This document shows positions 5,725-54,060 of a stretch of DNA of 64,000 bases, one piece after another (the stretch's first letter is position 1; each line of letters starts with the position of its first letter). The DNA is from an uncultured Bacteroidales bacterium (GTDB lineage: Bacteria; Bacteroidota; Bacteroidia; Bacteroidales; UBA10428). The stretch lies in contig CAZWIU010000001.1 in NCBI GenBank assembly GCA_964634105.1, forward strand, positions 16,949 through 80,948, read 5' to 3'. The notes beneath the pieces were generated by a model, which was not told the DNA's origin, ran no database searches, and saw nothing but the letters and a program-made list of their open reading frames with translations. Position numbers and translations under genes: made by a program.

Positions 5725-6579
5725 ATGAAAACAGAAAAATCGGCTCGGAAAATTAACGGATACTTTATGCTATTTGTGATGGCTATCTTAATAGCAATGA
5801 GTGTCACTAGTTTCGCCGCACAGCACATTGTGGCAGGTATTATTTTTATACCCATTTTTATCCTTATTGCACCAGGATTCATGGTGGTTAACCCTAACAT
5901 ATCCAAAGTGATGTTACTCTTTGGTGCTTATCAGGGAACATTAAAACAAAACGGGTTTTTCTGGGTAAATCCCTTTTATATGAAGCATACGATTTCCTTG
6001 AAGGCCAGGAACTTTGAGAGTGAAAGGATTAAAGTGAATGATAAATTGGGCAATCCGATCATGATTAGTGCAATTCTTGTCTGGAAGGTGGAAGATACCT
6101 TCAAAGCAATGTTTGAAGTTGATGACTATGAGAACTTCGTAAAAATTCAAACAGATGCTGCCGTCAGAAAGCTAGCCGGATCATACCCTTATGACCAGTT
6201 TGAAGATGCAAAAGCATCAATCACGTTGAGTTCAAGCTTTGAAGAAGTTAACCGAAGCCTCGAGGATGAAATTTCAGAACGTTTGAAGTTAGCTGGTATA
6301 ACTGTTATTGAGGCCAGAATCGGGTACCTGGCCTATGCCCCTGAAATTGCACAGGTTATGCTGAAACGGCAGCAGGCAACAGCCATTATTGCAGCACGAA
6401 GCAAGATTGTTGAAGGTGCTGTTGGTATGGTTGAGAGCGCGTTAAACCTGCTTTCATCTAAAGAATTAATAGTTCTTGATGAAGAAAAGAAAGCCGCCAT
6501 GGTGAGCAATTTACTGATTGTGCTTTGCGGTGATAAAGACGTTGAACCTGTAATAAACACAGGTACATTACATCAATAA
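5725..6579 (+). CDS. SPFH/band-7 domain membrane protein
   Basis: 284 aa. N-terminal TM helices are followed by an SPFH-like core (ERIKVNDKLGNPI...VWKVEDT...). Confidence 0.75.
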   Translation: MKTEKSARKINGYFMLFVMAILIAMSVTSFAAQHIVAGIIFIPIFILIAPGFMVVNPNISKVMLLFGAYQGTLKQNGFFWVNPFYMKHTISLKARNFESERIKVNDKLGNPIMISAILVWKVEDTFKAMFEVDDYENFVKIQTDAAVRKLAGSYPYDQFEDAKASITLSSSFEEVNRSLEDEISERLKLAGITVIEARIGYLAYAPEIAQVMLKRQQATAIIAARSKIVEGAVGMVESALNLLSSKELIVLDEEKKAAMVSNLLIVLCGDKDVEPVINTGTLHQ

Positions 6580-6592
6580 AACAAATGCAATA

Positions 6593-6751
6593 ATGGCGGA
6601 AAAGAAGTCATTCGTGCTCAGGATTGATACCGAAACCATGAAGGCAATTGAAAAGTGGGCAGCAGATGAGTTCAGGAGTATTAACGGACAATTGGAGTGG
6701 ATGATTCACAAATCGTTGCGGGATGCCGGAAGATTGAAACCTCCAAAATAA
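6593..6751 (+). CDS. small Arc/ribbon-helix-helix-like DNA-binding protein (52 aa; below the ORF-track length cutoff)
   Basis: My translation is MAEKKSFVLRIDTETMKAIEKWAADEFRSINGQLEWMIHKSLRDAGRLKPPK. It shows a beta-strand/helix/helix RHH pattern and starts 14 nt after the SPFH stop. Confidence 0.6.
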   Translation: MAEKKSFVLRIDTETMKAIEKWAADEFRSINGQLEWMIHKSLRDAGRLKPPK

Positions 6752-11794: not shown

Positions 11795-13216
11795 TTAAAA
11801 TTTCAGTTTCTTTTCGATATCTTCAATTTGGCTCTTAAAATGTTTATCTGTATCCATCAAATTATTAACAGTCTTACAAGCATGCAATACGGTAGCATGG
11901 TCTTTACCCCCTATTTGCGCGCCGATTGTAGCCAGCGACGATTTTGTCAGGTTCTTACTGAAATACATTGCCACTTGTCGGGCCTGAACAATCTCCCTTT
12001 TACGTGTTTTTGACTGCAACATTTCTACTCCAATGTCATAATAGCTGCAAACAACTTTCTGGATATAATCGATAGATACTTCGCGTTTTGTATTTTTAAT
12101 CAACTTATCAATCATTTCCTTGGCTAACTCCAGGGTGATTTCCTTTTTATTGAGTGTTGCCTGTGCAAGTAAGGAGATAAGCGCACCCTCAAGTTCCCGA
12201 ATATTATCGGTTATATGTGTTGAAATATATTCAATAACCTCATCAGGCATTTCTATACCATCTTTATATATCTTTTGCTTCAGGATTGCAATGCGGGTTT
12301 CGAAATCGGGAATCTGAAGATCGGCAGACAAGCCCCATTTAAATCTCGACAGAAGCCGCTGTTCCATTCCCTGAAGTTCAACCGGAGGTTTATCAGAGGT
12401 AAGTATTAATTGTTTACCCGATTGGTGAAGGTGGTTGAATATATGGAAAAAAGTATCCTGGGTCTTTTCTTTTCCGGCAAATTCATGAACGTCATCTATT
12501 ATAAGCACATCAATCATTTGGTAGAAGTGCAGGAAATCGTTCTTATTATTATTTCGGATCGATTCAACAAATTGTGTCTGAAATTTATTAGCATTAACAT
12601 ACAGGACAGTTTTGTCAGGAAACTTTTCCTTTACCTCAATTCCTATTGCCTGTGCCAAATGAGTTTTCCCTAATCCGGAATCGCCATAAATCAGCAAAGG
12701 ATTGAAGGCAGTACCGCCGGGATTATTTGCCACAGCAATTCCAGCTGAGCGGGCAAGCCTGTTGCACTCACCTTCAACAAAATTTGCAAAAGAGTTCTCC
12801 GGGTTTAACCTCGGGTCAATATCCAGCTTTTTAAGCCCTGGAATAATAAAAGGGTTTTTAATTGTTTTCTCTTCTGCGTTAAGCGGAACGGAAACAGGTC
12901 TGTTTTTAAGCTCTCGCTGATTTTGTGCCGGAAGTCGTACGGTTACTGGTTTGTTCTTTTCAACAGTACTATAATCCATTACTACGCTGTACTCGAGTTT
13001 TGCGTCGTACCCTAATTCTTTCCTAAGAGTTTTACTGATTATCTCAATGTACTTTTCTTCGAGATATTCATAGAAAAACGGGCTTGGGACCTGGATTGTA
13101 AGAATATTCTTATCGAGCTTCAACGGGACTATAGGTTCAAACCATGTCCTAAAGCTAATGGATGGCACATTATCCTTTATAACTTTAAGGCAATTGTTCC
13201 AAATTTCCCTATGCAT
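11795..13216 (-). CDS. dnaA: chromosomal replication initiator protein DnaA
   Basis: 473 aa. Has Walker A GDSGLGKTHL, the AAA+ core, and the C-terminal DNA-binding domain (...IGGKDHATVLHA...). Confidence 0.95.
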   Translation of the reverse strand: MHREIWNNCLKVIKDNVPSISFRTWFEPIVPLKLDKNILTIQVPSPFFYEYLEEKYIEIISKTLRKELGYDAKLEYSVVMDYSTVEKNKPVTVRLPAQNQRELKNRPVSVPLNAEEKTIKNPFIIPGLKKLDIDPRLNPENSFANFVEGECNRLARSAGIAVANNPGGTAFNPLLIYGDSGLGKTHLAQAIGIEVKEKFPDKTVLYVNANKFQTQFVESIRNNNKNDFLHFYQMIDVLIIDDVHEFAGKEKTQDTFFHIFNHLHQSGKQLILTSDKPPVELQGMEQRLLSRFKWGLSADLQIPDFETRIAILKQKIYKDGIEMPDEVIEYISTHITDNIRELEGALISLLAQATLNKKEITLELAKEMIDKLIKNTKREVSIDYIQKVVCSYYDIGVEMLQSKTRKREIVQARQVAMYFSKNLTKSSLATIGAQIGGKDHATVLHACKTVNNLMDTDKHFKSQIEDIEKKLKF

Positions 13217-18859: not shown

Positions 18860-21800
18860 ATGACCTTCATGACTGATTCGATCATTCCTTTATTAGTAAT
18901 TAAAGCACTCTGGTTATCACATGTGCTGTTTACCCTCACCGGTTTTATCTTATCTTCAGTTATATACCTTTCAATACGATATTACCGGCACAGAAAATAC
19001 CGACTTATATACTCTACCACAGAAAGTATTCTTGGAGAAAGTGATCAGTTGAATATACTCATAAATAATATCCCTGACTGCGTTTATTTAAAAGATAATC
19101 TGAGTCGGTATATCTTATGCAATCAACGTTTCGTTAAATTATTGAAATCCGAAAGACCGGAGCAAATATATGGTAAAACTGATGCTGAAATTTATAAGAA
19201 TGAATCTGCCAATAAATATCTTGAAGAAGACCGTAAAATACTGAATGGTGAAGTTCCCATATTAACCAGAAAGCAGGAAAGTCAGAAAGGCAATGAAAGT
19301 AGAATTACCCTTACCACAAAAATTCCAATAAAAAATAAAAAAGGCAAGATTATAGGATTGATGGGTACAATAGCAGATGTCACAGAACATGAAAAAGCTG
19401 CACAACTTTTAGAAGAGAGAAACAACGCACTCGAAAAAGAAGAGACTCTCTTCAGGGCGTTGATGGATAACATGCCCGATACAATTTACATTAAGGATAC
19501 CGAATGCCGTTTCCTGGATGGCAATCCGACACAAGTAAATATAACAAAAGCCGGCACTCACGAAAACCTTTTAGGAAAGACCGACTTTGATTTTTATCCT
19601 AAAGATATTGCTGAGATCTTTTACAAAGATGATAAACAAGTACTGGAAACCGGAAAACCGGTAATCAATAAAGAAGAAATTGGTTTTGATGCTAATGGAA
19701 ATATCCTTGTAAAGTCTACCACCAAGGTTCCTTTCCGGGACAAGAACGGAAAGATTCTGGGTTTAGTTGGTATTGGCAGGGACATTACCAAACAAAAAGA
19801 AGCAGAGGAAAAACTAAAAGAACAAGCTCAACATCTGCAGGAAGTCAATGTGCTGCTGGAGGAACGGCAGGAAGAAATTAACCAGCAATCCGACGAATTA
19901 AGTTCTCAAAACAAAATCCTTGAAGAGGAAAGAAACCTGCTTAGGACTCTGCTCGATAGTCTTCCCGATTATATTTACCTGAAAGATACCGACAGCCGGT
20001 TTGTTACTGTTAATCGTAAATTGATGCAGGTCTTCAAGACTGATAACCTCGATGATGTCATTGGCAAATCGGAAAAAGATTTCTATCCTGCTGATTATGC
20101 CGAGAATTTCATCAAGGATGACAAGCATATACTCAAAACCGGCAGGGCTATTATTGATAAAGAAGAACCTGGAATTGATGAGCAGGGTAATTTTATTCAA
20201 CTCCTCACCTCAAAAGTTCCAGTAAAAGATCCGGATGGTAAAATTACTGGAATCATTGGTATTGCGCGTGATATTTCAGCAATCAAAGAAGCAGAGCTGA
20301 AACTTAAAGAGCAGGCCGATTACCTGAAAGAGATGAACGTTTTATTAGAGGAACGACAGGAAGAGATTCAACAGCAGTCGAGCGAACTTACATCGCAGAA
20401 TACTATTCTTGAAAACGAAAGAAATCTTCTCCGGACGCTTATTGATACACTTCCTGATTTCATCTATATTAAGGATAAGGAAAGCCGCTTCATCACTGCA
20501 AATCAAAAAATATTGCTTGTAATGAAAGCTCCAAATTGTCAGTATCTTGAAGGTAAAACTGACTTTGATTTTTATCCGAAACAAATTGCACAATTGTTCT
20601 ATAATGATGAGCAGCAGATTGTCAAAACCGGAAAACCTCTCATTAATAAAGAGGAAATCGGGTTCGATATTGAAGGCAACCAGCGTACAATTGCAACTAC
20701 TAAAGTACCCTATTTTGATGCAGATGGTAATATCATCGGAATTGTCGGTGTCGGAAGAGATATCACCGAAATGAAAGAATTTGAAAACATTCTTAAAAAG
20801 CAAGCTGCAGACCTTCAGGAGAACAATCGCCTGTTGGAAGAACGTCAGGAAGAAGTGCAAAAACAATCGGAAGCCTTAGCTGAACAGAATAAGATACTTG
20901 AAAATGAACGAAATCTGCTCCGTACACTTATTGATAATATGCCCGATTATATTTACATCAAAGATAAAGAAAGCCGCTTCCTCACTGTTAACAGCAGGTT
21001 GTTGCATGTGATGCATGCAAAGTCGCTGGATGAAATTGTAGGAAAAACTGATTTTGATTCAGCCCCCACCAAAGAAGCTGCTGAACAGTATTTCCAGGAT
21101 GAGCGCAGGATCATCTCTACGGGTAAACCTATTATCAATAAAGAGGAAATCGGATTTGATGAGAACGACCGGGAGCGGGTAATTTCGACGACAAAAGTAC
21201 CCTTCTATGATGCTGATGGCAATATTGCAGGTATCGTAGGTATTGGTCGTGATATAACCAAACAAAAGAATGCCGAAAGACAATTACGGGAACAGGCACA
21301 GAATCTTCAGGAAGTAAATGTAATTCTTGAGGAAAGACAGGAGAAAATTCAACAGCAGAGTGAAGAACTGAATCAGCAGGCCCAGCATCTTAAGAAAGCA
21401 AACATTCAGCTTGAACAGCTTAATGCCACAAAGAATAAATTCTTTTCAATTATTGCACACGATTTAAAAAATCCTTTCCAGGCAATTTTTGGTTTCTCGG
21501 AGCTGCTAATGCGTAATTATGGCGATTTTGATGATCCTCAAAAGATGGAATTACTGGGTATGATCAAGACTTCTTCTGAAAGTGCTTATAATTTGTTGGA
21601 GAATTTGTTACAATGGGCAAGAACTCAGACAGAACGTATTAAATACAGTCCCGCCGATATTGACCTCGGAGAACTGATTGAACAAAACATATCGCTTAGT
21701 CAGGGAAGTTCCGAAAACAAGCATATTTCACTCGTCTCACAGATTAATACCACCGCTAAAGCTTTTGCCGATAAAAACATGATCAACCTGGTCATTCGCA

Positions 21801-22123
21801 ATTTAATAAGTAATGCCATTAAATTTACTAACGATGGTGGTGTGGTAACCATTCAGTGCAGCCAGGATGAAAAAGATAAAAACCTCCTGAGTGTTTCAAT
21901 ATCTGATACAGGTATTGGAATTTCTCCCGATAATATCAAAAAGTTATTCCGCATCGATGAATATTTTTCTACCTCGGGGACTGCAGGTGAAGGAGGAACC
22001 GGTTTAGGACTTATTATCTGCAAAGAATTTGTTGAAAAAAACAAAGGTACCATAAAGGTTGAAAGTGAATTGGAAGTTGGAACAACATTTACTTTTACCC
22101 TGCCTAAATCAGGTTCAAAATAA
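18860..22123 (+). CDS. membrane-anchored sensor histidine kinase with five PAS modules
   Basis: 1087 aa. N-terminal TM segment, then five repeats of coiled coil plus PAS (..LPDxIYIKD..SRF...GKTDFDFYP...TTKVP..D..G.I.G..G.GRDIT), then HisKA (FFSIIAHDLKNP) and HATPase_c. Confidence 0.9.
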   Translation: MTFMTDSIIPLLVIKALWLSHVLFTLTGFILSSVIYLSIRYYRHRKYRLIYSTTESILGESDQLNILINNIPDCVYLKDNLSRYILCNQRFVKLLKSERPEQIYGKTDAEIYKNESANKYLEEDRKILNGEVPILTRKQESQKGNESRITLTTKIPIKNKKGKIIGLMGTIADVTEHEKAAQLLEERNNALEKEETLFRALMDNMPDTIYIKDTECRFLDGNPTQVNITKAGTHENLLGKTDFDFYPKDIAEIFYKDDKQVLETGKPVINKEEIGFDANGNILVKSTTKVPFRDKNGKILGLVGIGRDITKQKEAEEKLKEQAQHLQEVNVLLEERQEEINQQSDELSSQNKILEEERNLLRTLLDSLPDYIYLKDTDSRFVTVNRKLMQVFKTDNLDDVIGKSEKDFYPADYAENFIKDDKHILKTGRAIIDKEEPGIDEQGNFIQLLTSKVPVKDPDGKITGIIGIARDISAIKEAELKLKEQADYLKEMNVLLEERQEEIQQQSSELTSQNTILENERNLLRTLIDTLPDFIYIKDKESRFITANQKILLVMKAPNCQYLEGKTDFDFYPKQIAQLFYNDEQQIVKTGKPLINKEEIGFDIEGNQRTIATTKVPYFDADGNIIGIVGVGRDITEMKEFENILKKQAADLQENNRLLEERQEEVQKQSEALAEQNKILENERNLLRTLIDNMPDYIYIKDKESRFLTVNSRLLHVMHAKSLDEIVGKTDFDSAPTKEAAEQYFQDERRIISTGKPIINKEEIGFDENDRERVISTTKVPFYDADGNIAGIVGIGRDITKQKNAERQLREQAQNLQEVNVILEERQEKIQQQSEELNQQAQHLKKANIQLEQLNATKNKFFSIIAHDLKNPFQAIFGFSELLMRNYGDFDDPQKMELLGMIKTSSESAYNLLENLLQWARTQTERIKYSPADIDLGELIEQNISLSQGSSENKHISLVSQINTTAKAFADKNMINLVIRNLISNAIKFTNDGGVVTIQCSQDEKDKNLLSVSISDTGIGISPDNIKKLFRIDEYFSTSGTAGEGGTGLGLIICKEFVEKNKGTIKVESELEVGTTFTFTLPKSGSK

Positions 22124-22124
22124 T

Positions 22125-23459
22125 TCATTGCTTTCTTACAGCCTGTTGTTTTCCGTAAGCTGATCGGAACGGATCGATAATTCTCTCCAGCAATGAACGC
22201 TGATTAGTTATGACTTCAGCAATTCCGGGCATATTTTGCTGAAAGTTCAATTGAATTCCATAACTTGTAATCAGGAGTGAGCTATCCAGCGTCACTTCCG
22301 CTGCATACTGTTCGTTATTGGGGACCGATGAAATATTTGAAATTTTCCCGTTGACTACTCCAAATTCCATATAAGGATAATTATCAAAGCGTATGATCAC
22401 ATTGTGTCCTTCTTTGATTTTTCCTGCGCCGGCAGCCGGCAGCAAGATTCTGCCAAAAACTTCGCCCTGTTCAACAGGAAGGATTGTCAGCACGATATCG
22501 CCCTTTCCGACATATTGATTTTCACTCCAGATTTTCGTTAATGATACTTTCCCGCTAAAAGGTGATCTCAGAATATAATCCCGGTCCCATAATGATATCT
22601 GACCTTTAAGTCTCTCATAAGCCTCCTGAATACGTTGTGAGTATTGTCTGCCCTCATCCTCCTGCTTCAATTCAAGTTCGAGGATCTCCTGTTGCAGGTT
22701 TGATACTTCTATTTGAGCAGTGACAAGCGCTGTTTGTGTTTTTTTCCACTCATTTTTCTTATTCAGTTTCACGGTCTCTGATTTTTCCAGCTGAGCTGAA
22801 GAGATTATTTTCTCAGCAAACAGCGATGAGTCTCTCGAATATTGTTTCTCCGAAAGAATATAATCCTGATAGAGTATTTTTTCCTGGTCTTTAACTTTAT
22901 CGAGGTAGAGATCAAATTTTTTAAGTTCGGTTCTGACTGAATGAATTTTACGTTGATGATAATTTAATCGCAAAAAACCCGAATATTCCTGTAATTCTTT
23001 TAGTAACGAAGCATATGAATCCTGCATTTCCCCGAGCTTCATCTCACCTTTAAGATCGGCATGGATAAGCGAATCCAGATCAAAGGTTTCCCCTAATTTC
23101 GTTTCGAGCTCCTGTACATCGTTAAAATCGGCAGCTGATTCAAGGACAGCCAGGACCTGGTTCTCCCTTACTATCTCTTTATCTTTCACCTGGAAATATT
23201 TAATCCTGGCTGAGGTATTGGCTATCACATCAGCTGGCGGAGTTTTCGTTGTAAGTACTATTCGGGCCTGAATAATATCAGGGTACCGAAGCAGTGAAGC
23301 AACAATGACCAGTATTATCAATACAGCCATGACAGCCAGTGTGCCATTCCTTACGATCCACCTGGGTACCTGGCCAAGAATTTCTCTCAACTGTTCACTA
23401 CGAAGCTCAAGGCTTTCAGCCTTTTCCATATCGCTATCGGAAATTTTAATTCCCTGCAT
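22125..23459 (-). CDS. HlyD-family membrane-fusion/adaptor protein of the peptide exporter
   Basis: 444 aa. One N-terminal TM helix, a long coiled coil and a C-terminal barrel region. Its start overlaps the PCAT stop by 1 nt (TGATG). Confidence 0.85.
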   Translation of the reverse strand: MQGIKISDSDMEKAESLELRSEQLREILGQVPRWIVRNGTLAVMAVLIILVIVASLLRYPDIIQARIVLTTKTPPADVIANTSARIKYFQVKDKEIVRENQVLAVLESAADFNDVQELETKLGETFDLDSLIHADLKGEMKLGEMQDSYASLLKELQEYSGFLRLNYHQRKIHSVRTELKKFDLYLDKVKDQEKILYQDYILSEKQYSRDSSLFAEKIISSAQLEKSETVKLNKKNEWKKTQTALVTAQIEVSNLQQEILELELKQEDEGRQYSQRIQEAYERLKGQISLWDRDYILRSPFSGKVSLTKIWSENQYVGKGDIVLTILPVEQGEVFGRILLPAAGAGKIKEGHNVIIRFDNYPYMEFGVVNGKISNISSVPNNEQYAAEVTLDSSLLITSYGIQLNFQQNMPGIAEVITNQRSLLERIIDPFRSAYGKQQAVRKQ

Positions 23460-25675
23460 CAGGCACCAAGTTCAAGTTGATTTTTTACCAGCATATAATA
23501 CTTTCCCTTTCGGGCGGTTAGTTCATTATGTGTACCTGTTTCAATCAGCAAACCTTTTTCCAGCACGATGATCTGATCTGCATTCTTAACTGTGCTTAAC
23601 CTATGGGCAATGATCACAACTGTTCTTCCCCTATAAAACTCACCAAGATTCTCCAGAATCTCACGTTCATTATTTGCATCGAGGGCATTTGTTGCTTCGT
23701 CAAAAAGAAGGAAAGCAGGATCTTTATAAATAGCTCTCGCTATCAGTATCCTCTGTTTTTGGCCCTGGCTTAATCCTAATCCGTCAGGTCCTAACCGTGA
23801 ATTGAACCCAAGAGGCATCTCATCACAAATTGTATGGACATTGGCCATACGTGCTGCATAGTAAAGTTTCTCCTTATCGATATTTTCATCAGAGAGAGCA
23901 ATATTTCTGGCTATACTATCGGTAAATAAAAATCCGTCCTGAAGAACAACCCCGCAGGACTTTCTCCAGTATGAAGGACTTATGTGTTCTAAGTTCTGGT
24001 CTCCGATAAAGATATTCCCTGCAACCGGCGAATAAAACTTCAATAAAAGTTTCAATAATGTTGTTTTGCCGCTTCCGCTGGTACCAACAATGGCTGTTAC
24101 TTTGCTATGGGGTATTGTAAATGAGATATCTTTCAATGCATATGGCGATTTCGGCCCTTCATATTGAAAAGAAATATTTTTAATAATTATATCACGTTGA
24201 CTGAAATCAAGTCCCGAAATCAACTGTTTTCTTTCTTCTTCTTCGTTCTCCCTGTCATGAATTTCCGCCAGCCTGTCGAGACTAATACGCGCATCCTGTG
24301 ATGCATGAAAGAAATCAATCATCATATCGATGGGGCCGGAAAGCTGGCCTATTACATAGGATATTGCTACCAGCGTTCCTAATGTTAACTGTCCTTTGAA
24401 GACCAATAATGCAGCAAAGAAGACTATCAGAATATCTTTATATTGATTGAAAATCAACGCCCCAGCTCTTTGCTTTTGAAATAACGACAGCCCACTGATA
24501 TTGATCCGGAATAACCTGGCCTGAATATCTTCCCATTCCCATCGTTTTCTTTTCTCACAATTATTCAGTTTTATTTCATGCATGCCGCTCAACAATTGAA
24601 TTAATGTACTCTGATTACTCGACAATTGGGCAAATTTTTTATCATCCAGCTCTTTTCTTTTACGCATAAATCTCAATGTCCACAATAAGTATAGGATGCT
24701 CCCGAATAAGAAGACGAGGAATATTTTCCAGCTAAATACAATGAGAACTATTCCCATCAGAACAACTGAAAATATTGAATGAAAAAGGTTAATGACAGTA
24801 TTCGATAAAAACAATTCAATTCTTTTATGATCGGCCACACGTTGCAACAGGTCGCCCCTGTTTTTACTTTCAAAAAAGGATACAGGCAATCGCATCAGCT
24901 TGATCAGGAAATCGGAGATTAAATGGATATTTATCCGCGAGCCCAGGTAAAGAATTATCCAGTTCCTGATAAACTCCAGGGAAAACCTGCTTGTAACTAG
25001 TACCAGTTGGGCAATCAGAATGGTGTAAATTAAGGTAAGATTCGGTATTAAAACGCCTTTATCAACCACCGTTTGAAACAGGAAAGGAAGAATGATCTGG
25101 ATAATTGCAACGAGAATAAGTCCCAGCACAACCTGGACAATTAGTCTGTTATAACCACGAAGGTATCTGGTTAAAAAGCTTATTTTACCCCTATTGAAAT
25201 GTTCATCCTCGGATCTATAAAACTCAGGGGTAGTTTCCAATTGAAGACATATTCCCAACTTTTCACCATCTTCTACAGTTGAGGCCCATCCTTTAAGGAA
25301 ATCAGAGTTGGAATAGCTGATTTCTCCAAACGCTGGGTCTACAACATATACTACCTTATTCGTGATTTTCCTGATTATAATAAAATGTTCCTGGTTCCAA
25401 TGAGCTATGCAGGGTAAAGGAATATCAGTTTTCAACTGTTCAAATGACAGTTTAAGTCCGCGCGTCCTGAATCCAATTGCTTCAGCTGCTTCACTGATAC
25501 CCAATAGTGAAACACCTTCATGGCTGATATAACAGCGTTGCCTAAATGACTCGATGGAATAGTTCTTCCCATAGTATTTGGCTATCATCCTAAGACATGC
25601 CGGACCACAATCGTTGGAGTCGTGCTGAATAAATACAGGGAATCGTGACATGAAATAACAAGAATAGATCGACAC
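23459..25675 (-). CDS. peptidase-C39-domain ABC transporter (PCAT; exports and cleaves double-glycine-leader peptides)
   Basis: 738 aa. The N-terminal C39 domain keeps its catalytic Cys (QHDSNDCGPACLRM) and the downstream His/Asp region. It also has a 6-TM ABC domain, Walker A GTSGSGKTT, the signature LSQGQKQR and Walker B LLFDEAT. The true start may be M9 at 25651. Confidence 0.9.
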   Translation of the reverse strand: MSIYSCYFMSRFPVFIQHDSNDCGPACLRMIAKYYGKNYSIESFRQRCYISHEGVSLLGISEAAEAIGFRTRGLKLSFEQLKTDIPLPCIAHWNQEHFIIIRKITNKVVYVVDPAFGEISYSNSDFLKGWASTVEDGEKLGICLQLETTPEFYRSEDEHFNRGKISFLTRYLRGYNRLIVQVVLGLILVAIIQIILPFLFQTVVDKGVLIPNLTLIYTILIAQLVLVTSRFSLEFIRNWIILYLGSRINIHLISDFLIKLMRLPVSFFESKNRGDLLQRVADHKRIELFLSNTVINLFHSIFSVVLMGIVLIVFSWKIFLVFLFGSILYLLWTLRFMRKRKELDDKKFAQLSSNQSTLIQLLSGMHEIKLNNCEKRKRWEWEDIQARLFRINISGLSLFQKQRAGALIFNQYKDILIVFFAALLVFKGQLTLGTLVAISYVIGQLSGPIDMMIDFFHASQDARISLDRLAEIHDRENEEEERKQLISGLDFSQRDIIIKNISFQYEGPKSPYALKDISFTIPHSKVTAIVGTSGSGKTTLLKLLLKFYSPVAGNIFIGDQNLEHISPSYWRKSCGVVLQDGFLFTDSIARNIALSDENIDKEKLYYAARMANVHTICDEMPLGFNSRLGPDGLGLSQGQKQRILIARAIYKDPAFLLFDEATNALDANNEREILENLGEFYRGRTVVIIAHRLSTVKNADQIIVLEKGLLIETGTHNELTARKGKYYMLVKNQLELGA

Positions 25676-25837: not shown

Positions 25838-26755
25838 TTAAAATACAACGGAGCGGCGTATTGTCTTCCTCAGACTGAATTTGTCTTCGGTATCTTTCAT
25901 TTTCGTGATCACTTTAGATCTTAAGACTGGTCGGTATGGAATTGTGAAATAAAATGTTGTTCCTTTCGTTTTCACTGAATTATACCAGATTCTGCCTTTC
26001 ATCAGTTCAACAAGCTTTTTTGCCAGGCTGAGTCCTAATCCAAGTCCTTCCTGTGAATTATCCGATTCATCAAGTTTAGCGAAACTTCGATACATAATCT
26101 GTTCTTTACCTTCCAGACCACCAATTCCAGAATCGGTAATAAAAAATTCAATCTCCTGTTCCTTTACTCCAAATCCAATCTCCACTACTCCCTGAGAAGT
26201 AAATTTGAAAGCATTTGAAATCAGGTTACTAAGTACCTGGGTTAAACGGTATGCATCACAATATACATACAGAGGTTTTAATTCTTCAGGTACCGATACT
26301 AAAAATGCAATGTTCTTTTCTGAAATATGTTTCTGAATTGAATAATAGGAATGTATCTCCTGTAAAAGATCATTAATATTGCATTCATCATTTGAAAGTT
26401 GAAGTATGCCTGCCTCAATGATCGATGCTTCAATGATATTATCCATCTTTCTTAAAAACTCGCGACTGCTTTCACGAATTTGAGCAATGTAAGTGTTTTT
26501 CTCCTGATCATTAATGCTGTTCATTTGTATCAGGTCGGAGAATCCAACTATTGCATTTAAAGGAGTACGAATTTCATGGTAAAGGTTTTTGAGAAAGATT
26601 GATTTAGCCCTTTCTACACTGTCTGTTTTTTCATTCAAAAGTTGCTCCAGGAGCTTTACCCGTTTCTTCAGGTAATCATATTCAGCTCCCTCCCTCTTCA
26701 GGAAAAGGCTTCCGAACTTATAAAAACCCCTTTTTATGACGTGTAGTAATTTCAT
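25838..26755 (-). CDS. soluble histidine kinase lacking a recognisable sensor or TM domain
   Basis: 305 aa. Short coiled coil, then HisKA (LYHEIRTPLNAI) and HATPase_c (N-box NLISNAFKFT, G-boxes DSGIG, GLGLGL). Confidence 0.85.
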   Translation of the reverse strand: MKLLHVIKRGFYKFGSLFLKREGAEYDYLKKRVKLLEQLLNEKTDSVERAKSIFLKNLYHEIRTPLNAIVGFSDLIQMNSINDQEKNTYIAQIRESSREFLRKMDNIIEASIIEAGILQLSNDECNINDLLQEIHSYYSIQKHISEKNIAFLVSVPEELKPLYVYCDAYRLTQVLSNLISNAFKFTSQGVVEIGFGVKEQEIEFFITDSGIGGLEGKEQIMYRSFAKLDESDNSQEGLGLGLSLAKKLVELMKGRIWYNSVKTKGTTFYFTIPYRPVLRSKVITKMKDTEDKFSLRKTIRRSVVF

Positions 26756-26868: not shown

Positions 26869-27636
26869 CTAATTCAGTTTTTTCAATACTTTATGCGCCT
26901 CCTTTTTGTAGTAGCCATTATTGGCATCAATACTTTCAAAGATATCTTTGGCTTTATCAATTTCTCCGGTTTTTATATAGCAAAGACCCAGGTACCATTG
27001 TGCAGATTCAATGAACACATTTTCTTTATGATCGATTATTTTTCTGAAATTTTCATTTGCTTTGGTATAATGGTTAAGCTCCATATGTGAAATGCCGGAA
27101 TATAAATTAAGCCCTATCCGGGTTTGATCGCTGTCAAGTATCTTCTCGAACAGTGTAATTGCTTTTGAGTATTCTTTATTCTCGTAAAAGAACATCGCTG
27201 TTCGCAAATCACTATCGACAATATCTTCAGCAGTTCTGAAACTAATATTTATCTCTGCCGGTTGATAATATTCAGCAAAGAGATCGGCTGTTGATACTTT
27301 ATCTTTTGAAGAAGTAAACCATAATATCATCAGAATAGCCAAAGTGGCTGCTACTGTCCCGGCAACATACATGTATCTTCGGATGGTTGATGTCGGAATA
27401 TTCAGTGACCTAACCCATGGTCTGTATATATTCGAGTGAATTTCTTCCAACTGCGTGTGTAGCATCATTGTTTCGTTATCAGAAATGACTTCAAAAATCC
27501 TTTTCTGGAATTGTAATTCTGCCTCAAGCTCCTTATTGTCTTTGAGTTCTTTCTCAAACCAGATTTTCTCGTCGGTTTCCATAACACCATCAAGATATCT
27601 GTCGATATACCTGGAATAGTTAATTTCTTGATTCAT
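26869..27636 (-). CDS. single-pass membrane protein: anti-sigma-factor-like N-terminus plus extracytoplasmic TPR domain
   Basis: 255 aa. The N-terminus IDRYLDGVMETDEKIWFEKELKDNKELEAELQFQ resembles anti-sigma N-domains but lacks the zinc ligands. TM helix YVAGTVAATLAILMILWF is followed by TPR-like repeats. Confidence 0.55.
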   Translation of the reverse strand: MNQEINYSRYIDRYLDGVMETDEKIWFEKELKDNKELEAELQFQKRIFEVISDNETMMLHTQLEEIHSNIYRPWVRSLNIPTSTIRRYMYVAGTVAATLAILMILWFTSSKDKVSTADLFAEYYQPAEINISFRTAEDIVDSDLRTAMFFYENKEYSKAITLFEKILDSDQTRIGLNLYSGISHMELNHYTKANENFRKIIDHKENVFIESAQWYLGLCYIKTGEIDKAKDIFESIDANNGYYKKEAHKVLKKLN

Positions 27637-27878
27637 AGTGTAAAAAATTTACAAACCATTTATAATATCCAGAAAAGCCAACTCCTTTTCTGAACAAACA
27701 ATTAAAATTAATGACGGATCAAAAAAAATTATAAGATTTTCGTACAACCCGGATTTAATATCCGGTAGATACATCTATCATTAGCCCTATTAATTCAATT
27801 CAATAATCAATAACTATACTCAATCAATATGATGTAGCGTTTGGCAGGACTTCCATGCCAAAACAATATTCCATTATT

Positions 27879-28009
27879 AAAAAAAAGGAGGGCAGGAAAA
27901 AGATCTATCGGAAAGGAATAGATTTTGATGGACTTTAGTAGAAATAAAAGGAAACTACAAAGTAATGTGCCAAACCATCTATTATCCTGCCTGGGGATAC
28001 TCCTTTTTT
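27879..28009 (-). terminator. about 130-nt multi-hairpin element closed by a long-range helix and followed by a U-run (putative attenuator/terminator after the peptide gene)
   Basis: Plus-strand aaaaaaggag (27881-27890) pairs with ctcctttttt (28000-28009), and ggcagg (27891-27896) pairs with cctgcc (27986-27991). Two internal hairpins: atctat/atagat near 27903-27923, and ctttagtag (27933-27941) / ctacaaag (27955-27962). Confidence 0.45.
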
Positions 28010-28038: not shown

Positions 28039-28161
28039 TTAAATCTTTTTAAATGGATCAACGATGTCTCCTCCGCCTCTCACCTTTCTCATTTCGTTTA
28101 TTGTTAATACCTGGTAATTGCTTTTTTCTGATTTTTCAAGATTAACTTTATACGTTTTCAT
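28039..28161 (-). CDS. double-glycine-leader peptide precursor (40 aa; predicted 10-aa mature core); not in the ORF track
   Basis: My minus-strand translation is MKTYKVNLEKSEKSNYQVLTINEMRKVRGG|GDIVDPFKKI, stop at 28039-28041. The leader fits the GG-leader pattern (L-x-x-x-E-M-x-x-V-x-G-G). The gene lies upstream of, and co-oriented with, a C39 ABC exporter. Confidence 0.7.
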   Translation of the reverse strand: MKTYKVNLEKSEKSNYQVLTINEMRKVRGGGDIVDPFKKI

Positions 28162-28344
28162 TTTACGGGGTTTTAATGTTTCGTTCTGATATATGTTCCA
28201 TTCTCATTAAAAATGTCACCACCCTTTTGACTTTTTTTTCAAAAAAATTTTTAATTATTTCATAAAATATTTTATGCCAGCATTTTACGTTCTTTTCAGT
28301 TTCAGTATAATTTTCTATTTTAGTTGCCGCGAGACCAGCATCAA

Positions 28345-31170
28345 ATGATCTTCATAAAAAAAACATCGGCTATACTAATATGCGGGATTTGTATTGCGGA
28401 GGGGTTATTTGCAGAAATTAAACCTGTTAATCCTGCTGTCGATTCTGCAAAACTACTTTTAGAGATGTCAAACAATCTGGCAAATGCTGGAGACTATATC
28501 CAATCACTCCAAGCGACCAAAGCATTACACTATTTCAGGATGCGTAATTATGAAGCCAGTGACTCTAGGATTCTTGCCAGTTATGCAAACCTTATAAATG
28601 CCTACATGCTAATTTCGGATTATGATTCAGTTGAATATTTTCGAGACCTGGCCGAGCAATTCAGACTTAAGTATAAGATTGAAAAAGGACTTGAATTAAG
28701 CAGCTTATACTCCAGTATCGGGTTGTTAATGCGAAATAAAGGCGATTACCTTGAAGCAAAAAGCTACTATATGCAGGCTGAGAAATGCCTTATAAATTCG
28801 GATAAAAAGATCGATCCTGAGGACATGGCAATATTGTATATCCGGATAGCCAATATTGAACGATTACTTCACAATTATGAAGAAGCCCTTGGCTATTTTA
28901 AAAAAAGCATTGATTATTTAAGTACGCAGCAGAAAACGCAGTTCAGAATTACCAGTCTGACAGGAATTGCGTTGATCTATTCCGAAATGAAAAACTATTC
29001 TCAGAGCCTTGCTTATAAAAAAAAGGCGTTAAGACTGGCTCAGCAGGATTCGATTAACAGTAGTTTGCAATTGGCTGTGCTATATAATAATATCGGACAG
29101 GATTATATGCTTGTTAATGAACTGAGAGATGCAGAGAAGAATCTCCTGAAAGCACTTGCCCTGTTTAATTCGATGGAATACAGAGGCACGTATAGCGCAA
29201 GCGCTTATGAGAATCTGGGCCTTTTATCGGAAAAGAAAGGCGACCACCTGTCTGCACTTGCATACTATCAGAAAGCTATTCAGGAAATAGCTCCTGAGTT
29301 CCATCCGGTTGATAATATCAGTTGTCCTTTGTCCGATGAAATATATCCCACTCCTGCATTGTTGCGAATCCTGAAATCCAAAGCCAAATGCCTGACTACA
29401 ATGTACCTTTACAGCCTCAAAGCTGCCTATCTCGATGCAGCATTGAACACGTATAAAACAGGAATTACGGTTGTTGATGAGCTACGTAACAGCTATCAAA
29501 GTTATGAAAGTAAACTGCTGATCGCTAAGGATGAATATGATATTTACCGATCGGCACTTCCCCTTGCGAATACAGGATACATTAACACCCTCAATGCTCG
29601 CTACCTGCAAATTGCTTTCGAGGTATCTGAAAAATCGAAATCTGCTTTATTACTGGCTAGTCTCCGTGAATTGGATGCCCGTAAAATGGGAGGTATTCCT
29701 GAAGAGTTATTACGAGAGGAAAAGAATATTTCGAGGCTGATTAATCAGTATAAAAATACTATATACGAAGAACAACAGCTTGCCAAACCTGACCTTAATA
29801 AAATCGGAACATTGCAAAGTTCCCTCTTCGAAGCACAACAGAAACGCAATAAATTGATCGAGACCTTTGAAAAAGAGTACCCGGCATATTATTCACTAAA
29901 AATACAGAATACTGTTCCCGGGGTAAAGAACATACAGCATTCTATTCCGGGAAATACTTCCCTCATTGAATATTCAATCGGAGATACAATGCTTTATATA
30001 TTCGTTCTTACAAAGAGCCGTTTTCACCTTATTACGGAGCGTATCGACAGTGCTTTCTTCAGATTAATTTCAGCCTATGTTGACCAATTTCACAGGTTCG
30101 ATTTCAGTAAACAATCGTATGAAGATTATTCATCGTTTTGCTCAACCAGCATATCGCTGTATAATAAGTTAATTAAGCCTGTGGTCTCTTTTCTCAGGGG
30201 CGACAACCTGCTCATAGTTCCCGATGGTATTCTGTCATATATTCCATTTGAAACATTGATACAAGAATTACCATCGAAAAATTCATTATACTATAAATCA
30301 CTCAACTATCTATTAAATGACTATACTATCTCCTACTCATACTCATCGTCATTTCTTCTGGAAGTTGACAAAACCGGTAATAAAAGAAAAACCAGTAAGC
30401 TGTTAGCCTTTGCCCCGGAATACAAACCTGGTTTTGATGCAGGTGCATATATTGGTAATCATAACACCCGACAAAATCTCAAGGAAGCACTCTATCCTAT
30501 CCCGGGGGTGATTGAAGAGGTTAAGTCGATCAGCAATTTAATAGCAAGCGATGTATTTACAGGAATAGAAGCTACCGAGAGTAACTTCAGAAAAATTGCG
30601 AACAATTACGATATTCTTCATTTAGCGATGCATGCAGTAATCGATAACAAAAATCCCCTTTTCTCAAAGCTTGTATTCACACTTTCTGATGATTCGCTGG
30701 AAGATGGACTCTTAAATACATACGAGATCTTTAATATGCAATTAAATGCCCGGATGGTTGTTTTAAGTGCGTGTAACACTGGTCAGGGTGACTATAGTCA
30801 GGGAGAAGGAGTAATGAGCCTTGCCAGGGGATTTGTATATGCAGGTTCTCCCAGCTTAATAATGACCATGTGGGAGGTCGAAGATAAATCGGGTAGTATG
30901 CTGATGAAATCTTTTTATGAAAATCTGCTGAAAGGTCAGCCAAAAGCAGAAGCGCTGCGAAATGCCAAAATCAGGTACCTGCATGAAGCCCGGGCTGAAA
31001 ATCTTCATCCATTTTTCTGGTCATCGTTTGTAGCGATGGGAAATACCAAACCCCTTTTCATAAATAAAAAGTTATATTATTATCTGGCAGCAGGCATTAT
31101 ATTAGGGTTGATCACTATTCTGCTTATGCGAAAACGATACCATAGACTCAGGAAAGACCGGATCGCTTGA
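28345..31170 (+). CDS. secreted TPR-CHAT (caspase-fold) protease with a C-terminal membrane anchor
   Basis: Signal-peptide-like N-terminus MIFIKKTSAILICGICIAEGLFA (ATG at 28345, inside the tracked TTG ORF). About 300 aa of TPR repeats. The CHAT domain keeps ILHLAMHA (His) and VVLSACNTG (Cys), plus HPFFWSSFVAMGN. C-terminal TM helix LAAGIILGLITILLM is followed by a basic tail. Confidence 0.9.
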   Translation: MIFIKKTSAILICGICIAEGLFAEIKPVNPAVDSAKLLLEMSNNLANAGDYIQSLQATKALHYFRMRNYEASDSRILASYANLINAYMLISDYDSVEYFRDLAEQFRLKYKIEKGLELSSLYSSIGLLMRNKGDYLEAKSYYMQAEKCLINSDKKIDPEDMAILYIRIANIERLLHNYEEALGYFKKSIDYLSTQQKTQFRITSLTGIALIYSEMKNYSQSLAYKKKALRLAQQDSINSSLQLAVLYNNIGQDYMLVNELRDAEKNLLKALALFNSMEYRGTYSASAYENLGLLSEKKGDHLSALAYYQKAIQEIAPEFHPVDNISCPLSDEIYPTPALLRILKSKAKCLTTMYLYSLKAAYLDAALNTYKTGITVVDELRNSYQSYESKLLIAKDEYDIYRSALPLANTGYINTLNARYLQIAFEVSEKSKSALLLASLRELDARKMGGIPEELLREEKNISRLINQYKNTIYEEQQLAKPDLNKIGTLQSSLFEAQQKRNKLIETFEKEYPAYYSLKIQNTVPGVKNIQHSIPGNTSLIEYSIGDTMLYIFVLTKSRFHLITERIDSAFFRLISAYVDQFHRFDFSKQSYEDYSSFCSTSISLYNKLIKPVVSFLRGDNLLIVPDGILSYIPFETLIQELPSKNSLYYKSLNYLLNDYTISYSYSSSFLLEVDKTGNKRKTSKLLAFAPEYKPGFDAGAYIGNHNTRQNLKEALYPIPGVIEEVKSISNLIASDVFTGIEATESNFRKIANNYDILHLAMHAVIDNKNPLFSKLVFTLSDDSLEDGLLNTYEIFNMQLNARMVVLSACNTGQGDYSQGEGVMSLARGFVYAGSPSLIMTMWEVEDKSGSMLMKSFYENLLKGQPKAEALRNAKIRYLHEARAENLHPFFWSSFVAMGNTKPLFINKKLYYYLAAGIILGLITILLMRKRYHRLRKDRIA

Positions 31171-31729
31171 TTCTTTGATATTCCGGATCCTCTTTAATCA
31201 TCTTTATCAGATATTCTTTACACTTATACTTTTTATTACGGATTATTTTTTCATTCTTATAGCCCATTTCAATGGCGATCTGTTCATAGGATACACCATC
31301 GGATATTAACCGGAGCACTTTCTGACACTCGACGCCAAGCTTTGTAAAATATTTCCGGAATAACCGCATGTCAATTTCCTCTTCCACAAGGGAATCGGAA
31401 GGTAAGTAGGAATTTTCAGGCTCTTCGATCTGTAAAATATTCCGCTCATGAGTTGCCCTGCTTCTTAATATTTTCAACCAGACCAAACGGGCCACACCAT
31501 ATAAATAAGCTTCAAACCCCGTTTTGATCGCGAACGAGTTTTGAGAGATTTGTTTAAATACGATGATTATTGATTCCTGAAATACGTCTTTTGAATCATC
31601 CTGCGATCCACCATTGCTCATAACATAATATCGGACAACCGGATATAATTCCTTATAGATTAAGGTGAGGATTTTATTATCCCGCTTTTGAATGCCTTCA
31701 ATAATTTGCCCAAGGGTAAGTTTTTTCAC
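31148..31729 (-). CDS. ECF-type sigma-70 family RNA polymerase sigma factor
   Basis: 193 aa with region 2 (DVFQESIIIVF..., AYLYGVARLVWLK) and a region 4 HTH (VLRLISDGVSYEQIAIEMG). Its 3' end overlaps the 3' end of the CHAT gene by 23 bp, convergently. Confidence 0.85.
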   Translation of the reverse strand: MKKLTLGQIIEGIQKRDNKILTLIYKELYPVVRYYVMSNGGSQDDSKDVFQESIIIVFKQISQNSFAIKTGFEAYLYGVARLVWLKILRSRATHERNILQIEEPENSYLPSDSLVEEEIDMRLFRKYFTKLGVECQKVLRLISDGVSYEQIAIEMGYKNEKIIRNKKYKCKEYLIKMIKEDPEYQRIKRSGLS

Positions 31730-32294
31730 TGTTCTTCAGAGTGTTTCGTAAATTGAAATTCATGCCTTTATATACTACATAGCTATTTTGCAGTGCAATG
31801 AAATGATTCGAACGAAACATCACACAGTAAGCTATCTCAAAGATATACAAAAATGCTTATCCTGCATTATTCTTTGATTAATTGAAGTATATAGTAGATA
31901 CTTGAAGTAATACTTAATTTATAGTATGATTATATTATTCTCAATATGAAAGTGTTATCGCCTGGCTTTGAGAAGCTATTTCTCATGCGAAAGCAGTAAC
32001 TTCATGGTTAACGTATTTAATCTCCCTTTGGCTATGCTGAGATCCGGATCGGATCAATCATAACTGTTATTAAAGTCAACACCAGCAGAGCCTATATGAT
32101 CTGTCCAGCAAGCTGATGAATCCGGACCTGTTATTTTCACCGCTTTACGGTTGCCCACCAAATAACCATGCTGGCTACATGTTAAATTTTTGTAAAACAA
32201 TATTTTAATTGACGAATTGATTGATAAAGGAAAATGTTTTTCATATATTAGATACTGTATGCAGACAACATTCGTTGTTTTATAAAACAGTATT

Positions 32295-50919: not shown

Positions 50920-51258
50920 AGGAATGTTGGCCGATTACAGCTTAAGTTCAAGAAGTACCTTTTTGCATATTTTACTATTTACATTACGCTTAACATTTCA
51001 TAAGTCAAATTTTCTGAAGTTAAGTACCCATTCAACTAAAGTTAATTAATTTATATGACCTATTCAACAGAATCGTTGATTTTAATTAGGGCATGTCGAT
51101 TAAATATTGAATACGAAATCGTTGATCCAATTCTTAAAGAGCAGGAACGATGATTCTGCATTGAAATAAAAGCAGGAGGGATAAAATGATTTTCAACGTA
51201 TTGGTTTTGTTCAGCGCTAACAAATGTCATTTATACCTGCCGGACATTGTGGACATGC

Positions 51259-53571: not shown

Positions 53572-53605
53572 ATAATTCATTAATAAATTATGCATTTGCG
53601 AGGTT

Positions 53606-54049: not shown

Positions 54050-54060
54050 ATCATCTGTTT

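Follow-up and report, generated by a model that had tools for sequence, protein, structure and literature searches.

What does a 40-codon open reading frame (ORF) in a Bacteroidales genome encode, and with which of the genes around it does its product act? The ORF lies in a stretch of 64,000 nucleotides from an uncultured Bacteroidales bacterium (GenBank assembly GCA_964634105.1, contig CAZWIU010000001.1, positions 16,949 to 80,948 of the forward strand), which is called the window here and is numbered from its first letter. In an earlier reading of this DNA (the original prediction), the ORF was proposed to be the precursor of a double-glycine (GG) leader peptide, cut by the C39 domain of a peptidase-containing ABC transporter (PCAT). 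The peptide appears to be a cell-signalling peptide, and of a type not previously described from Bacteroidota. Its gene belongs to a cassette that also encodes an extracytoplasmic function (ECF)-type sigma factor, a membrane protein with tetratricopeptide repeats (TPR), a soluble histidine kinase and a TPR-CHAT protease. In our judgement there is an even chance that the peptide is a PCAT-exported signal that feeds back on its own sigma factor via periplasmic TPR/CHAT sensing.

The Peptide Gene and Its Leader

The peptide gene has the following parts.

28039 to 28161, minus strand: GG-leader peptide ORF, 40 amino acids (aa), ATG at 28161, stop codon at 28039-28041, product MKTYKVNLEKSEKSNYQVLTINEMRKVRGGGDIVDPFKKI
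28072 to 28161, minus strand: predicted leader peptide of the double-glycine type, residues 1-30, MKTYKVNLEKSEKSNYQVLTINEMRKVRGG (based on leader spacing and pN/pS)
28039 to 28071, minus strand: predicted mature core GDIVDPFKKI, 10 aa, with the stop codon (based on the family alignment)

Retranslation of the minus-strand ORF reproduced the originally predicted peptide and its coordinates exactly. Read as MKTYKVNLEKSEKSNYQVLTINEMRKVRGG|GDIVDPFKKI, the peptide has L at -12, I at -10, E at -8, M at -7, V at -4, and G at -2 and -1, and this spacing had also been given correctly. The sequence at the predicted cut is R-G-G-G. Based on the family alignment, in which position +1 is variable, the cut is placed after G30 with an ambiguity of one residue. 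The core is then 10 aa long and has a net charge of 0.

The window was scanned in six frames for the pattern [polar][LIVMF]xx[LIVMFA]xG[GAS] in ORFs of 20-200 aa. The peptide ORF is the sole intergenic small-ORF match, and the remaining matches are within large genes or overlap them in another frame or on the other strand. An ORF cut-off of 60 aa hides this gene, which is the key gene of the cassette.

Conservation of the Peptide Family

The exact window peptide is present on 12 metagenome contigs with the same neighbours. A word-index search with the peptide as query returned only the peptide itself, and an exhaustive phmmer search against 1.84 billion representatives returned one true small relative (P0170) and repetitive long proteins. 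Because homology searches with 40 residues are nearly blind, the neighbouring 255-aa TPR protein was used as the query, and 120 relatives of it were found in uncultured Bacteroidales. Scanning GTDB genomes with the alignment of this TPR family gave 80 loci; the single TPR protein as query gave nothing.

Among the related loci, from Bacteroidales metagenome-assembled genomes, 67 have at least 700 bp upstream of the TPR gene, and 61 of these contain, just ahead of this gene, a small same-strand ORF with a leader ending in ..[IV][RK]GG. The conservation reaches down to ~30% identity of the TPR protein. In the closest relative, whose membrane-TPR protein is 68% identical, the peptide MKSSEINQSRVEKTEKRNYQVLTIDEMFKIRGG|GGEIPDTGKLK is encoded at the same position in an identical cassette. 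Loss of the ORF in close relatives was looked for, and the ORF is kept.

When 64 family leaders are anchored at GG, position -12 is L in 56 and M in six, position -7 is M or L in all 64, and position -4 is I or V in 61. Position -8 is E, D or Q in 47, and position -3 is R or K in 57. Over 20 related pairs, the leader has a ratio of nonsynonymous to synonymous polymorphism (pN/pS) of 0.43, and the core has a ratio of 0.67. The 5' untranslated region (5'UTR) directly before the peptide ATG (AAACCCCGTAA) is conserved as well. Because the ORF is kept at the same position in these 61 loci and in the closest relative, with pN/pS below 1 and a conserved 5'UTR, it is almost certainly a real gene. Based on these comparisons, the peptide can be assigned to a new family, conserved in uncultured Bacteroidales.

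One locus (L044) contains two tandem GG-peptide genes, at 6222-6386 and 6438-6686, with nearly identical cores; the second gene enters a masked stretch. Duplication in situ is therefore possible for this family.

As far as the library scans reach, no curated family covers the peptide, though it behaves like a GG leader. Apart from one relative, the family gave only sub-threshold matches, nearly all of them to GG-leader regions. These are the mersacidin and enterocin leaders in Pfam, and lactococcin G, TIGR01847, TIGR04149, the class I lanthipeptide leader and the EntF induction factor in NCBIfam. TIGR01847 gives no match to the window peptide at E up to 10, and the sole match of this peptide is to the lactococcin G-alpha leader (E 0.049). 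Seven of 59 relatives match TIGR01847 at E up to 1, and one of them passes, with 19.2 bits against a cut-off of 15.7. A miss by this model counts for little, because the model has only 15 positions. When the family profile was aligned by hhalign with 12 classical Gram-positive GG leaders, the probability was 87.8% (E 3.3e-6), with GG placed on GG.

The peptide thus shows the features of the GG-leader class: the GG itself, hydrophobic residues at -4, -7 and -12, an acidic or polar residue at -8, and a C39 transporter in the locus. It is very probably a PCAT substrate. The idea of a GG-leader precursor handled by a C39 PCAT agrees with the conserved register, the in-register profile alignment and the presence of this transporter in the gene string. 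The transporter had been called adjacent; it is ~2.4 kb downstream in the same gene string, with two genes between.

The Cassette and Its Co-Occurrence

The other genes of the cassette in the window are listed below.

26869 to 27636, minus strand: 255-aa single-pass membrane TPR protein (AlphaFold2 (AF2) model, Foldseek, predicted topology, linker conservation)
25838 to 26755, minus strand: 305-aa soluble histidine kinase with HisKA and HATPase_c, with no transmembrane (TM) segment and no sensor domain
23459 to 25675, minus strand: 738-aa PCAT with C39 peptidase, ABC membrane and ATPase domains (Pfam, NCBIfam and PDB matches)
22125 to 23459, minus strand: HlyD-family membrane-fusion (adaptor) protein (library scans, topology)
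28345 to 31170, plus strand, divergent from the peptide gene: 941-aa TPR-CHAT protease (CHAT E 1.2e-63, Pfam)
31148 to 31729, minus strand, convergent with the TPR-CHAT gene: 193-aa ECF-type sigma-70 factor (Sigma70_r2; TIGR02937)

The C39 domain of the PCAT (PF03412, E 6.8e-37) contains the Cys motif QHDSNDCG. Over its full length the protein matches PCAT1 (4ry2, E 9e-103) and ComA (E 9e-90), and it also matches bacteriocin/NHLP exporter families of NCBIfam. Its true start is probably the ATG eight codons in. The sigma factor scores 55.7 bits against TIGR02937 (sigma70-ECF), for which the cut-off is 42.9.

The kinase gene was found in 77 of 81 loci, and its place in them is always immediately behind the TPR gene. 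Among the 49 loci with at least 4.7 kb of upstream sequence, TPR-CHAT is present in 47 and the sigma factor in 46. PCAT is present in 28 of the 64 loci with enough downstream sequence, and HlyD in 25 loci. The peptide and TPR-CHAT occur together in 47 loci and are both absent from two, and no locus is discordant. Because this co-occurrence is perfect and PCAT is found in just 28 of 64 loci, the regulatory genes are closer companions of the peptide than the exporter is. The original prediction, centred on the PCAT, missed this main point: the tighter bond of the peptide is to the cassette of sigma factor, TPR-CHAT, membrane-TPR protein and kinase.

A Promoter-Like Motif before the Peptide Gene

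A promoter-like motif precedes the peptide gene.

28195 to 28220, minus strand: two-block promoter-like motif GGTGACATTT-N10-TGGAAC, 33 nt upstream of the peptide ATG

The strict motif precedes the peptide gene in 31 of 61 loci, compared with 0.4% of background 130-nt windows. Within the 64-kb window it stands beside a gene start only here. Over all loci (~1 Mb), 32 of 63 strict matches are within 150 nt upstream of a peptide gene. Clades have their own variants, GTAACGTTT..GGAC and GTCACCTTTT..GGAAT. The upstream block (G-T-x-A-C followed by TTT) resembles the -35 element of ECF promoters, which is xAAC or xGAC followed by TTT. The ECF-like motif thus appears specific to the peptide gene, suggesting control by a sigma factor. 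One further locus, L081, has the membrane-TPR gene right behind the sigma gene, which there bears the ECF-like motif. The region upstream of the sigma gene in the window contains a Bacteroidetes housekeeping-type promoter, TAnnTTTG.

Two other promoter assignments were rejected. GGAAC..ACGAAAC as a -35/-10 pair has a short and variable spacing (11-14 nt). The conserved GGCAC in the loop of an RNA element described below lacks the -12 GC of a sigma-54 -24/-12 promoter.

The word ACGAAACA(Y)T is found near both promoters. Between the housekeeping promoter and the GTG start of the sigma gene it forms an inverted repeat, ATGTTTCGT and ACGAAACAT, with 60-70 nt between the arms. The copies are at 31742-31749 (minus strand) and 31812-31819 (plus strand) in the sigma 5' leader, and at 28177-28184 (minus strand) in the peptide 5'UTR, downstream of the promoter. 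Three of the five copies in the window are therefore in the regulatory regions of the sigma and peptide genes; 1.8 copies are expected by chance in the whole window. The word could be a shared operator, or a site of RNA-RNA pairing linking the two transcripts.

Topology and Folds of the Two TPR Proteins

The 255-aa protein is predicted to consist of an N-terminal three-helix cytoplasmic domain, a TM segment at residues 87-110, a linker and a periplasmic domain of three TPRs. Its AF2 model has a pLDDT of 87.6, with low confidence in the linker, which is predicted to be disordered. The linker nevertheless contains a conserved motif, YYxPAEIxMSFR, and R134 is invariant. The top Foldseek matches of the TPR domain are to peptide-binding TPRs: RPAP3 with the acidic HSP90 tail, YbgF, and IpgC/SycD. 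The membrane-TPR protein is a candidate peptide receptor or anti-sigma-like partner.

The TPR-CHAT protein has an N-terminal signal peptide (kept in relatives), ~15 TPR-like helical hairpins, a caspase-like CHAT domain, and a C-terminal TM anchor with a basic tail. Because of the signal peptide and the anchor with its basic tail, the TPR array and the CHAT domain are predicted to be periplasmic. The dyad H770/C817, numbered from the TTG start, is invariant in 45-46 of 46 homologues. The AF2 model (pLDDT 85.8, pTM 0.82) has Csx29 (8eey_B, E 1.9e-15), separase (1.9e-15) and DdvA (1.8e-14) as its top Foldseek matches. A Rap-peptide complex is among the weaker matches of the large TPR array, at rank 33.

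A Possible Autoinduction Circuit

We infer the cleavage, the export, the signalling role, the identity of the receptor, the substrate of CHAT and the sign of the feedback as follows. The ECF sigma factor of the cassette would transcribe the peptide gene from the GTGAC..GGAAC promoter. The C39 domain of PCAT would cut the 30-residue leader after G29-G30, and PCAT and HlyD would export unmodified GDIVDPFKKI. In the periplasm, the core would bind to a TPR domain, which could belong to the 255-aa membrane protein or to the membrane-anchored TPR-CHAT protein. Once bound, the core would switch on cleavage of the membrane-TPR protein by CHAT, at the conserved juxtamembrane linker. The cut would free the sigma factor, change the activity of the attached soluble histidine kinase, or both. 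The freed sigma factor would raise transcription of the peptide gene and close an autoinduction loop. The step in which CHAT cuts the membrane-TPR protein to release sigma is possible, though rather doubtful.

Over 42 loci, the divergence of the core correlates with that of the CHAT domain (rho 0.41) and of the periplasmic TPR domain (0.33; permutation p ~0.0005 for both), compared with 0.13 for the cytoplasmic domain, 0.11 for the kinase and 0.21 for the sigma factor. This co-variation of distance matrices is kept only as a hint of periplasmic partners, because shared phylogeny and differing evolutionary rates confound it.

Besides this confounding, several observations weigh against the circuit. 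GGAAC, the -10-like block, departs from the textbook ECF -10 element. The window peptide rose above threshold in no curated GG-leader model. PCAT and HlyD normally export across both membranes, so a periplasmic receptor needs re-entry of the peptide or its release in the periplasm. The cassette contains no response regulator. The N-terminal domain of the 255-aa protein shows no similarity to known anti-sigma domains by Pfam, PDB profile search or hhalign with RsiW. Pfam finds only TPR families in 40 members of the family, and the PDB profile search matches only the TPR part. The hhalign probability with RsiW is 1%. The divergence of this domain tracks that of the kinase (rho 0.60) more than that of the sigma factor (0.36). 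Because of this tracking and the absence of anti-sigma similarity, the domain may be a kinase partner rather than an anti-sigma factor. Finally, in a sub-clade of six loci (L020-L022, L025, L026 and L050) the TPR and kinase genes have no peptide gene near them in the flanking sequence, which covers up to 7 kb on either side, and four of them (L020, L021, L025 and L050) keep PCAT and HlyD.

As a side observation, L020 and L022 have enough upstream sequence in this sub-clade, and the sigma and CHAT genes are absent there too. L022 is a complete chromosome (CP070654.1), on which the TPR-kinase pair follows ribosomal-protein-like genes.

The absence of anti-sigma similarity, the peptide-less TPR-kinase sub-clade and the absence of a response regulator keep two other circuits alive. 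In the first, the membrane-TPR protein and the kinase would form a split two-component receptor. The periplasmic TPR domain would bind the core and control the soluble kinase docked on the three-helix domain, and the output would be an unlinked response regulator or the stand-alone LytTR proteins of some loci. The sigma factor and TPR-CHAT would then be a branch of their own, which could, for example, mature or degrade the peptide. TPR and kinase are indeed the most invariant pair of the cassette, and the pair persists in loci without sigma, CHAT and peptide. The divergence of the cytoplasmic domain, which tracks that of the kinase best, and the lack of an anti-sigma signature are also in favour.

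Moreover, 11 loci have two tandem genes of ~117 aa between kinase and PCAT, which we take to be LytTR-like from sequence motifs recognised by eye rather than from an HMM scan. These proteins have no receiver domain, however, and are absent from the window, and the cassette contains no receiver-domain protein. The split receptor also leaves unexplained the perfect co-occurrence of peptide, CHAT and sigma, the ECF-like promoter of the peptide gene and the adjacency of the sigma and TPR genes in L081. We regard it as unlikely. The loci with the tandem genes are L056, L057, L059, L063, L064, L068, L075 and L082-L085, and the genes are ~1.5-2.4 kb downstream of the TPR gene.

In the second circuit, the exported core would be a pseudo-substrate inhibitor or a substrate of TPR-CHAT, as securin is for separase. 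The protease would be kept off until the peptide is diluted or degraded, and the peptide would act negatively and not as an inducer. The separase-type fold of the CHAT protein and its strict co-occurrence with the peptide agree with this, as does the divergence of the core, which correlates most closely with that of the CHAT catalytic domain. Extended cores that are acidic and rich in Pro would fit well into an active-site cleft. On the other side, no cleavable residue is common to all cores. The peptide would also be made only when sigma is already active, a negative feedback that is possible but less economical. Such a role of the core appears quite unlikely.

Composition of the Cores

Is the peptide a signal, or could it be a toxin or a modified natural product? 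The family cores are 9-34 aa long, with a median of 16. They are composed of Pro (17.6%), Asp (16.9%), Gly (10%) and Glu (8.6%) in particular. Cys is present in one of 64 cores, and the net charge is zero or negative in 62. Clade-specific motifs are conserved, namely DPxxPI[KR][KR], which is closest to DPFKKI of the window, DLWPP and GEP..PIIIPP, and the core is thus constrained. Every computable test agrees with the original view of a linear, short, Cys-free product of pheromone size. When all ORFs of 90 aa or more from the 81 loci were clustered, no tailoring enzyme (radical-SAM, YcaO, lanthipeptide or other) and no immunity-like or small membrane immunity gene was seen among the conserved neighbours. 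Because the cores are short, acidic, Pro/Asp-rich and Cys-free, and because no modification or immunity gene accompanies them, a bacteriocin or a ribosomally synthesized and post-translationally modified peptide (RiPP) is disfavoured. From its composition and neighbours, the peptide is somewhat more probably a signal than a toxin or a RiPP.

An unmodified class II-type bacteriocin or another antagonistic peptide would have neighbours that serve its regulation and export. A GG leader with PCAT and HlyD is the standard export set and is known in Bacteroidales from bacteroidetocins and RiPP clusters (PMC10352776). The weak leader matches point to bacteriocin families, and some loci contain LytTR regulators. 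However, class II bacteriocins combine a cationic or amphipathic core of at least ~25 aa with an immunity gene, and this combination is not found here. The window core is 10 aa long and uncharged overall, and the family cores, in which Pro and Asp together make up 34%, are neither amphipathic nor cationic. No immunity-like gene is conserved, and PCAT is adjacent in under half of the loci although the regulatory genes are constant. An antagonistic function is improbable on these grounds.

A RiPP precursor with its tailoring enzymes encoded elsewhere, such as a radical-SAM-modified peptide of the TIGR04149 type, is harder still to reconcile with the data. TIGR04149 (GG_sam_targ_CFB; cut-off 25 bits) is the Bacteroidetes GG family with which the original prediction compared this leader. 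It matches 11 of 59 relatives below threshold (best E 4.9e-4) and the window peptide not at all. The cores lack Cys and have no conserved pattern of Ser, Thr and Cys, and the conserved genes of the 81 loci include no tailoring gene, whether of the radical-SAM, YcaO, lanthipeptide or another type, which makes this origin highly improbable.

That the ORF is an untranslated chance ORF, being only 40 codons long, without a database name and in AT-rich intergenic DNA, is practically negligible, since frame and leader motif are kept down to ~30% identity of the neighbouring protein, pN/pS is below 1, and promoter and 5'UTR are conserved.

Comparison with Known Systems

PCAT-exported peptide pheromones are a hallmark of Gram-positive bacteria. 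The family shares with the Gram-positive GG pheromones (ComC/CSP-ComAB, BlpC-BlpAB, plantaricin A and EntF) the leader register L-12, E-8, M/L-7, I/V-4 and GG. A C39 ABC transporter with an accessory protein in the locus, a core that diverges faster than the leader, and, as predicted here, a small unmodified linear product and an autoinduction loop are further similarities. It differs from them in its Gram-negative Bacteroidales host, its acidic Pro-rich cores, and position -3, which is almost always Arg or Lys. The circuits of ComC and BlpC use a multi-pass HPK10 kinase and a LytTR response regulator, whereas the kinase here has no TM segment. In their place the cassette contains an ECF sigma factor, a single-pass TPR protein, a soluble kinase and a TPR-CHAT protease. 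The receptors of the RRNPP family (Rap/NprR/PlcR/PrgX) are cytoplasmic TPR proteins with an effector or helix-turn-helix (HTH) output and a re-imported peptide. In contrast, the predicted location of both TPR modules of the cassette is periplasmic, and no HTH was detected.

DdvA of Myxococcus xanthus is an anti-sigma factor fused to a periplasmic TPR-CHAT; its signal is unknown, and cleavage of its linker has been proposed (PMC11506125). The DdvA-DdvS pair and the present cassette both couple an ECF sigma factor to a periplasmic, membrane-anchored TPR-CHAT of the separase/craspase type (Foldseek E ~2e-14), with a proposed cut in a juxtamembrane linker and subsequent release of sigma. Here, unlike in DdvA, TPR-CHAT and the candidate anti-sigma factor are two proteins. 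The former is anchored at its C-terminus and its His/Cys dyad is intact; the latter is the 255-aa protein, which has no zinc motif. The cassette also carries its own exported peptide, exporter and kinase, and no CBASS or CRISPR regulon is seen (PADLOC negative).

In the type III-E craspase, Csx29 cleaves Csx30 and relieves the inhibition of an ECF sigma factor (PMC10028731). The Csx29-Csx30-CASP-sigma system and the cassette have in common the genetic coupling of a TPR-CHAT protease to an ECF-type sigma factor; in craspase, CHAT cuts within a flexible loop and so releases the sigma inhibitor. Craspase is cytoplasmic and RNA-activated via Cas7-11, without a secreted peptide, transporter or kinase. 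In contrast, the protease of the cassette is predicted to be periplasmic, and its proposed activator is a peptide.

DegS is activated by peptide C-termini. The order proposed here, from a peptide ligand to a periplasmic site-1 protease, a cut single-pass anti-sigma factor and an ECF sigma factor, is similar to DegS-RseA-sigmaE and AlgW-MucA. The ligand of DegS and AlgW, however, is the C-terminus of a misfolded outer-membrane protein and not a dedicated exported product, and these enzymes are PDZ serine proteases, whereas the cassette encodes a TPR-CHAT cysteine protease.

In Bacteroidales themselves, GG-motif peptides and PCATs are known as bacteroidetocins, which are bacteriocins, and as RiPPs (PMC10352776). 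The phylum, the logic of leader and PCAT, and the leader end ..(I/V)(K/R)GG are shared with these clusters (TIGR04149). They have long, cationic or Cys-rich cores, or adjacent tailoring enzymes. The present family has neither, and it sits in a regulatory cassette.

Non-Coding Elements and the Surroundings of the Cassette

Between the peptide and membrane-TPR genes there is a structured element.

27874 to 28009, minus strand: structured element just 3' of the peptide ORF (covariance model R1)

It consists of a 21-bp closing stem (GGCAGGA..TCCTGCC with an A/G-tract paired to a U-tract), a large loop with the near-invariant sequence UGGUUUUAAYGGCAC, and a trailing U-run. Covariance model R1 finds 21 places in 20 sources, which are the window and 19 loci (L007-L019, L029, L030, L033, L039, L040, and L069 with two copies); in all that were checked, the element is near the peptide stop codon. 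Of the cells, 94% are paired, compared with 52-66% in slid controls. Compensatory changes are seen at 14 of 21 pairs, for example GGCAGGA/TCCTGCC versus GGCGAGA/TCTCGCC. Rfam has no match to the intergenic region of the peptide or to this element. The element resembles a terminator or attenuator, and may act as a regulated one between the peptide and receptor genes.

A 41-aa ORF at 27649-27774 (minus strand) is called a gene on several public contigs. No homologous ORF is found in the spacers of relatives or in the closest relative, and it is probably a false gene call overlapping conserved non-coding elements. In the same spacer between the peptide and TPR genes, the sequence CTACCGG-N7-10-CCGGGT at 27747-27768 (minus strand) is a candidate for a short palindromic hairpin or a binding site. 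It does not vary among 12 relatives, and the closest relative has the conserved GTACGAAAA behind it.

Convergent with the HlyD gene, a 1087-aa histidine kinase with five PAS repeats is encoded at 18860-22123 (plus strand). It is syntenic and 62-79% identical in ~15 related loci and is far more conserved than the cassette genes. This kinase may be functionally linked to the cassette, or may represent merely conserved synteny. The window also contains three large PAS histidine kinases in a run, two of them hybrids with receiver domains, beside a TonB-dependent receptor. The gene content further includes dnaA, transketolase, PFK and NusB. The spans concerned are 11795-13216 (minus strand) and 47500-56301. 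Because the window includes dnaA, the cassette region belongs to the chromosome, perhaps close to the origin. Nothing around the cassette points to a mobile element. PADLOC gave no defence-system match for the cassette proteins, and the neighbours are housekeeping genes.

Implications

Full-text searches of the literature returned no work joining a GG peptide, an ECF sigma factor and a TPR-CHAT protease, and those aimed at a peptide-signalling circuit in Bacteroidota returned none. What is new here is the cassette as a variant of both peptide signalling and TPR-CHAT/sigma switches; we infer its functional steps. It can be speculated, with some doubt, that it is the first peptide autoinduction system of Bacteroidota, similar to quorum sensing, in which a PCAT-exported ligand switches a periplasmic TPR-CHAT to release an ECF sigma factor. 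If so, this would be the first dedicated PCAT-exported peptide to act as the ligand of a separase/craspase-type TPR-CHAT that cuts a membrane anti-sigma-like protein. It would also be a concrete example for the unknown signal of TPR-CHAT anti-sigma systems such as DdvA. Craspase, DdvA and the present cassette are three independent couplings of TPR-CHAT to an ECF sigma factor, which suggests a general regulatory module.

The conserved seven-part cassette provides ~60 natural variants of peptide and receptor, each with a short core that is predicted to be unmodified and can be synthesised. Synthetic cores therefore make it testable whether the peptide induces its own promoter, which TPR domain it binds, and whether a periplasmic CHAT protease can be the site-1 protease for an ECF sigma factor.

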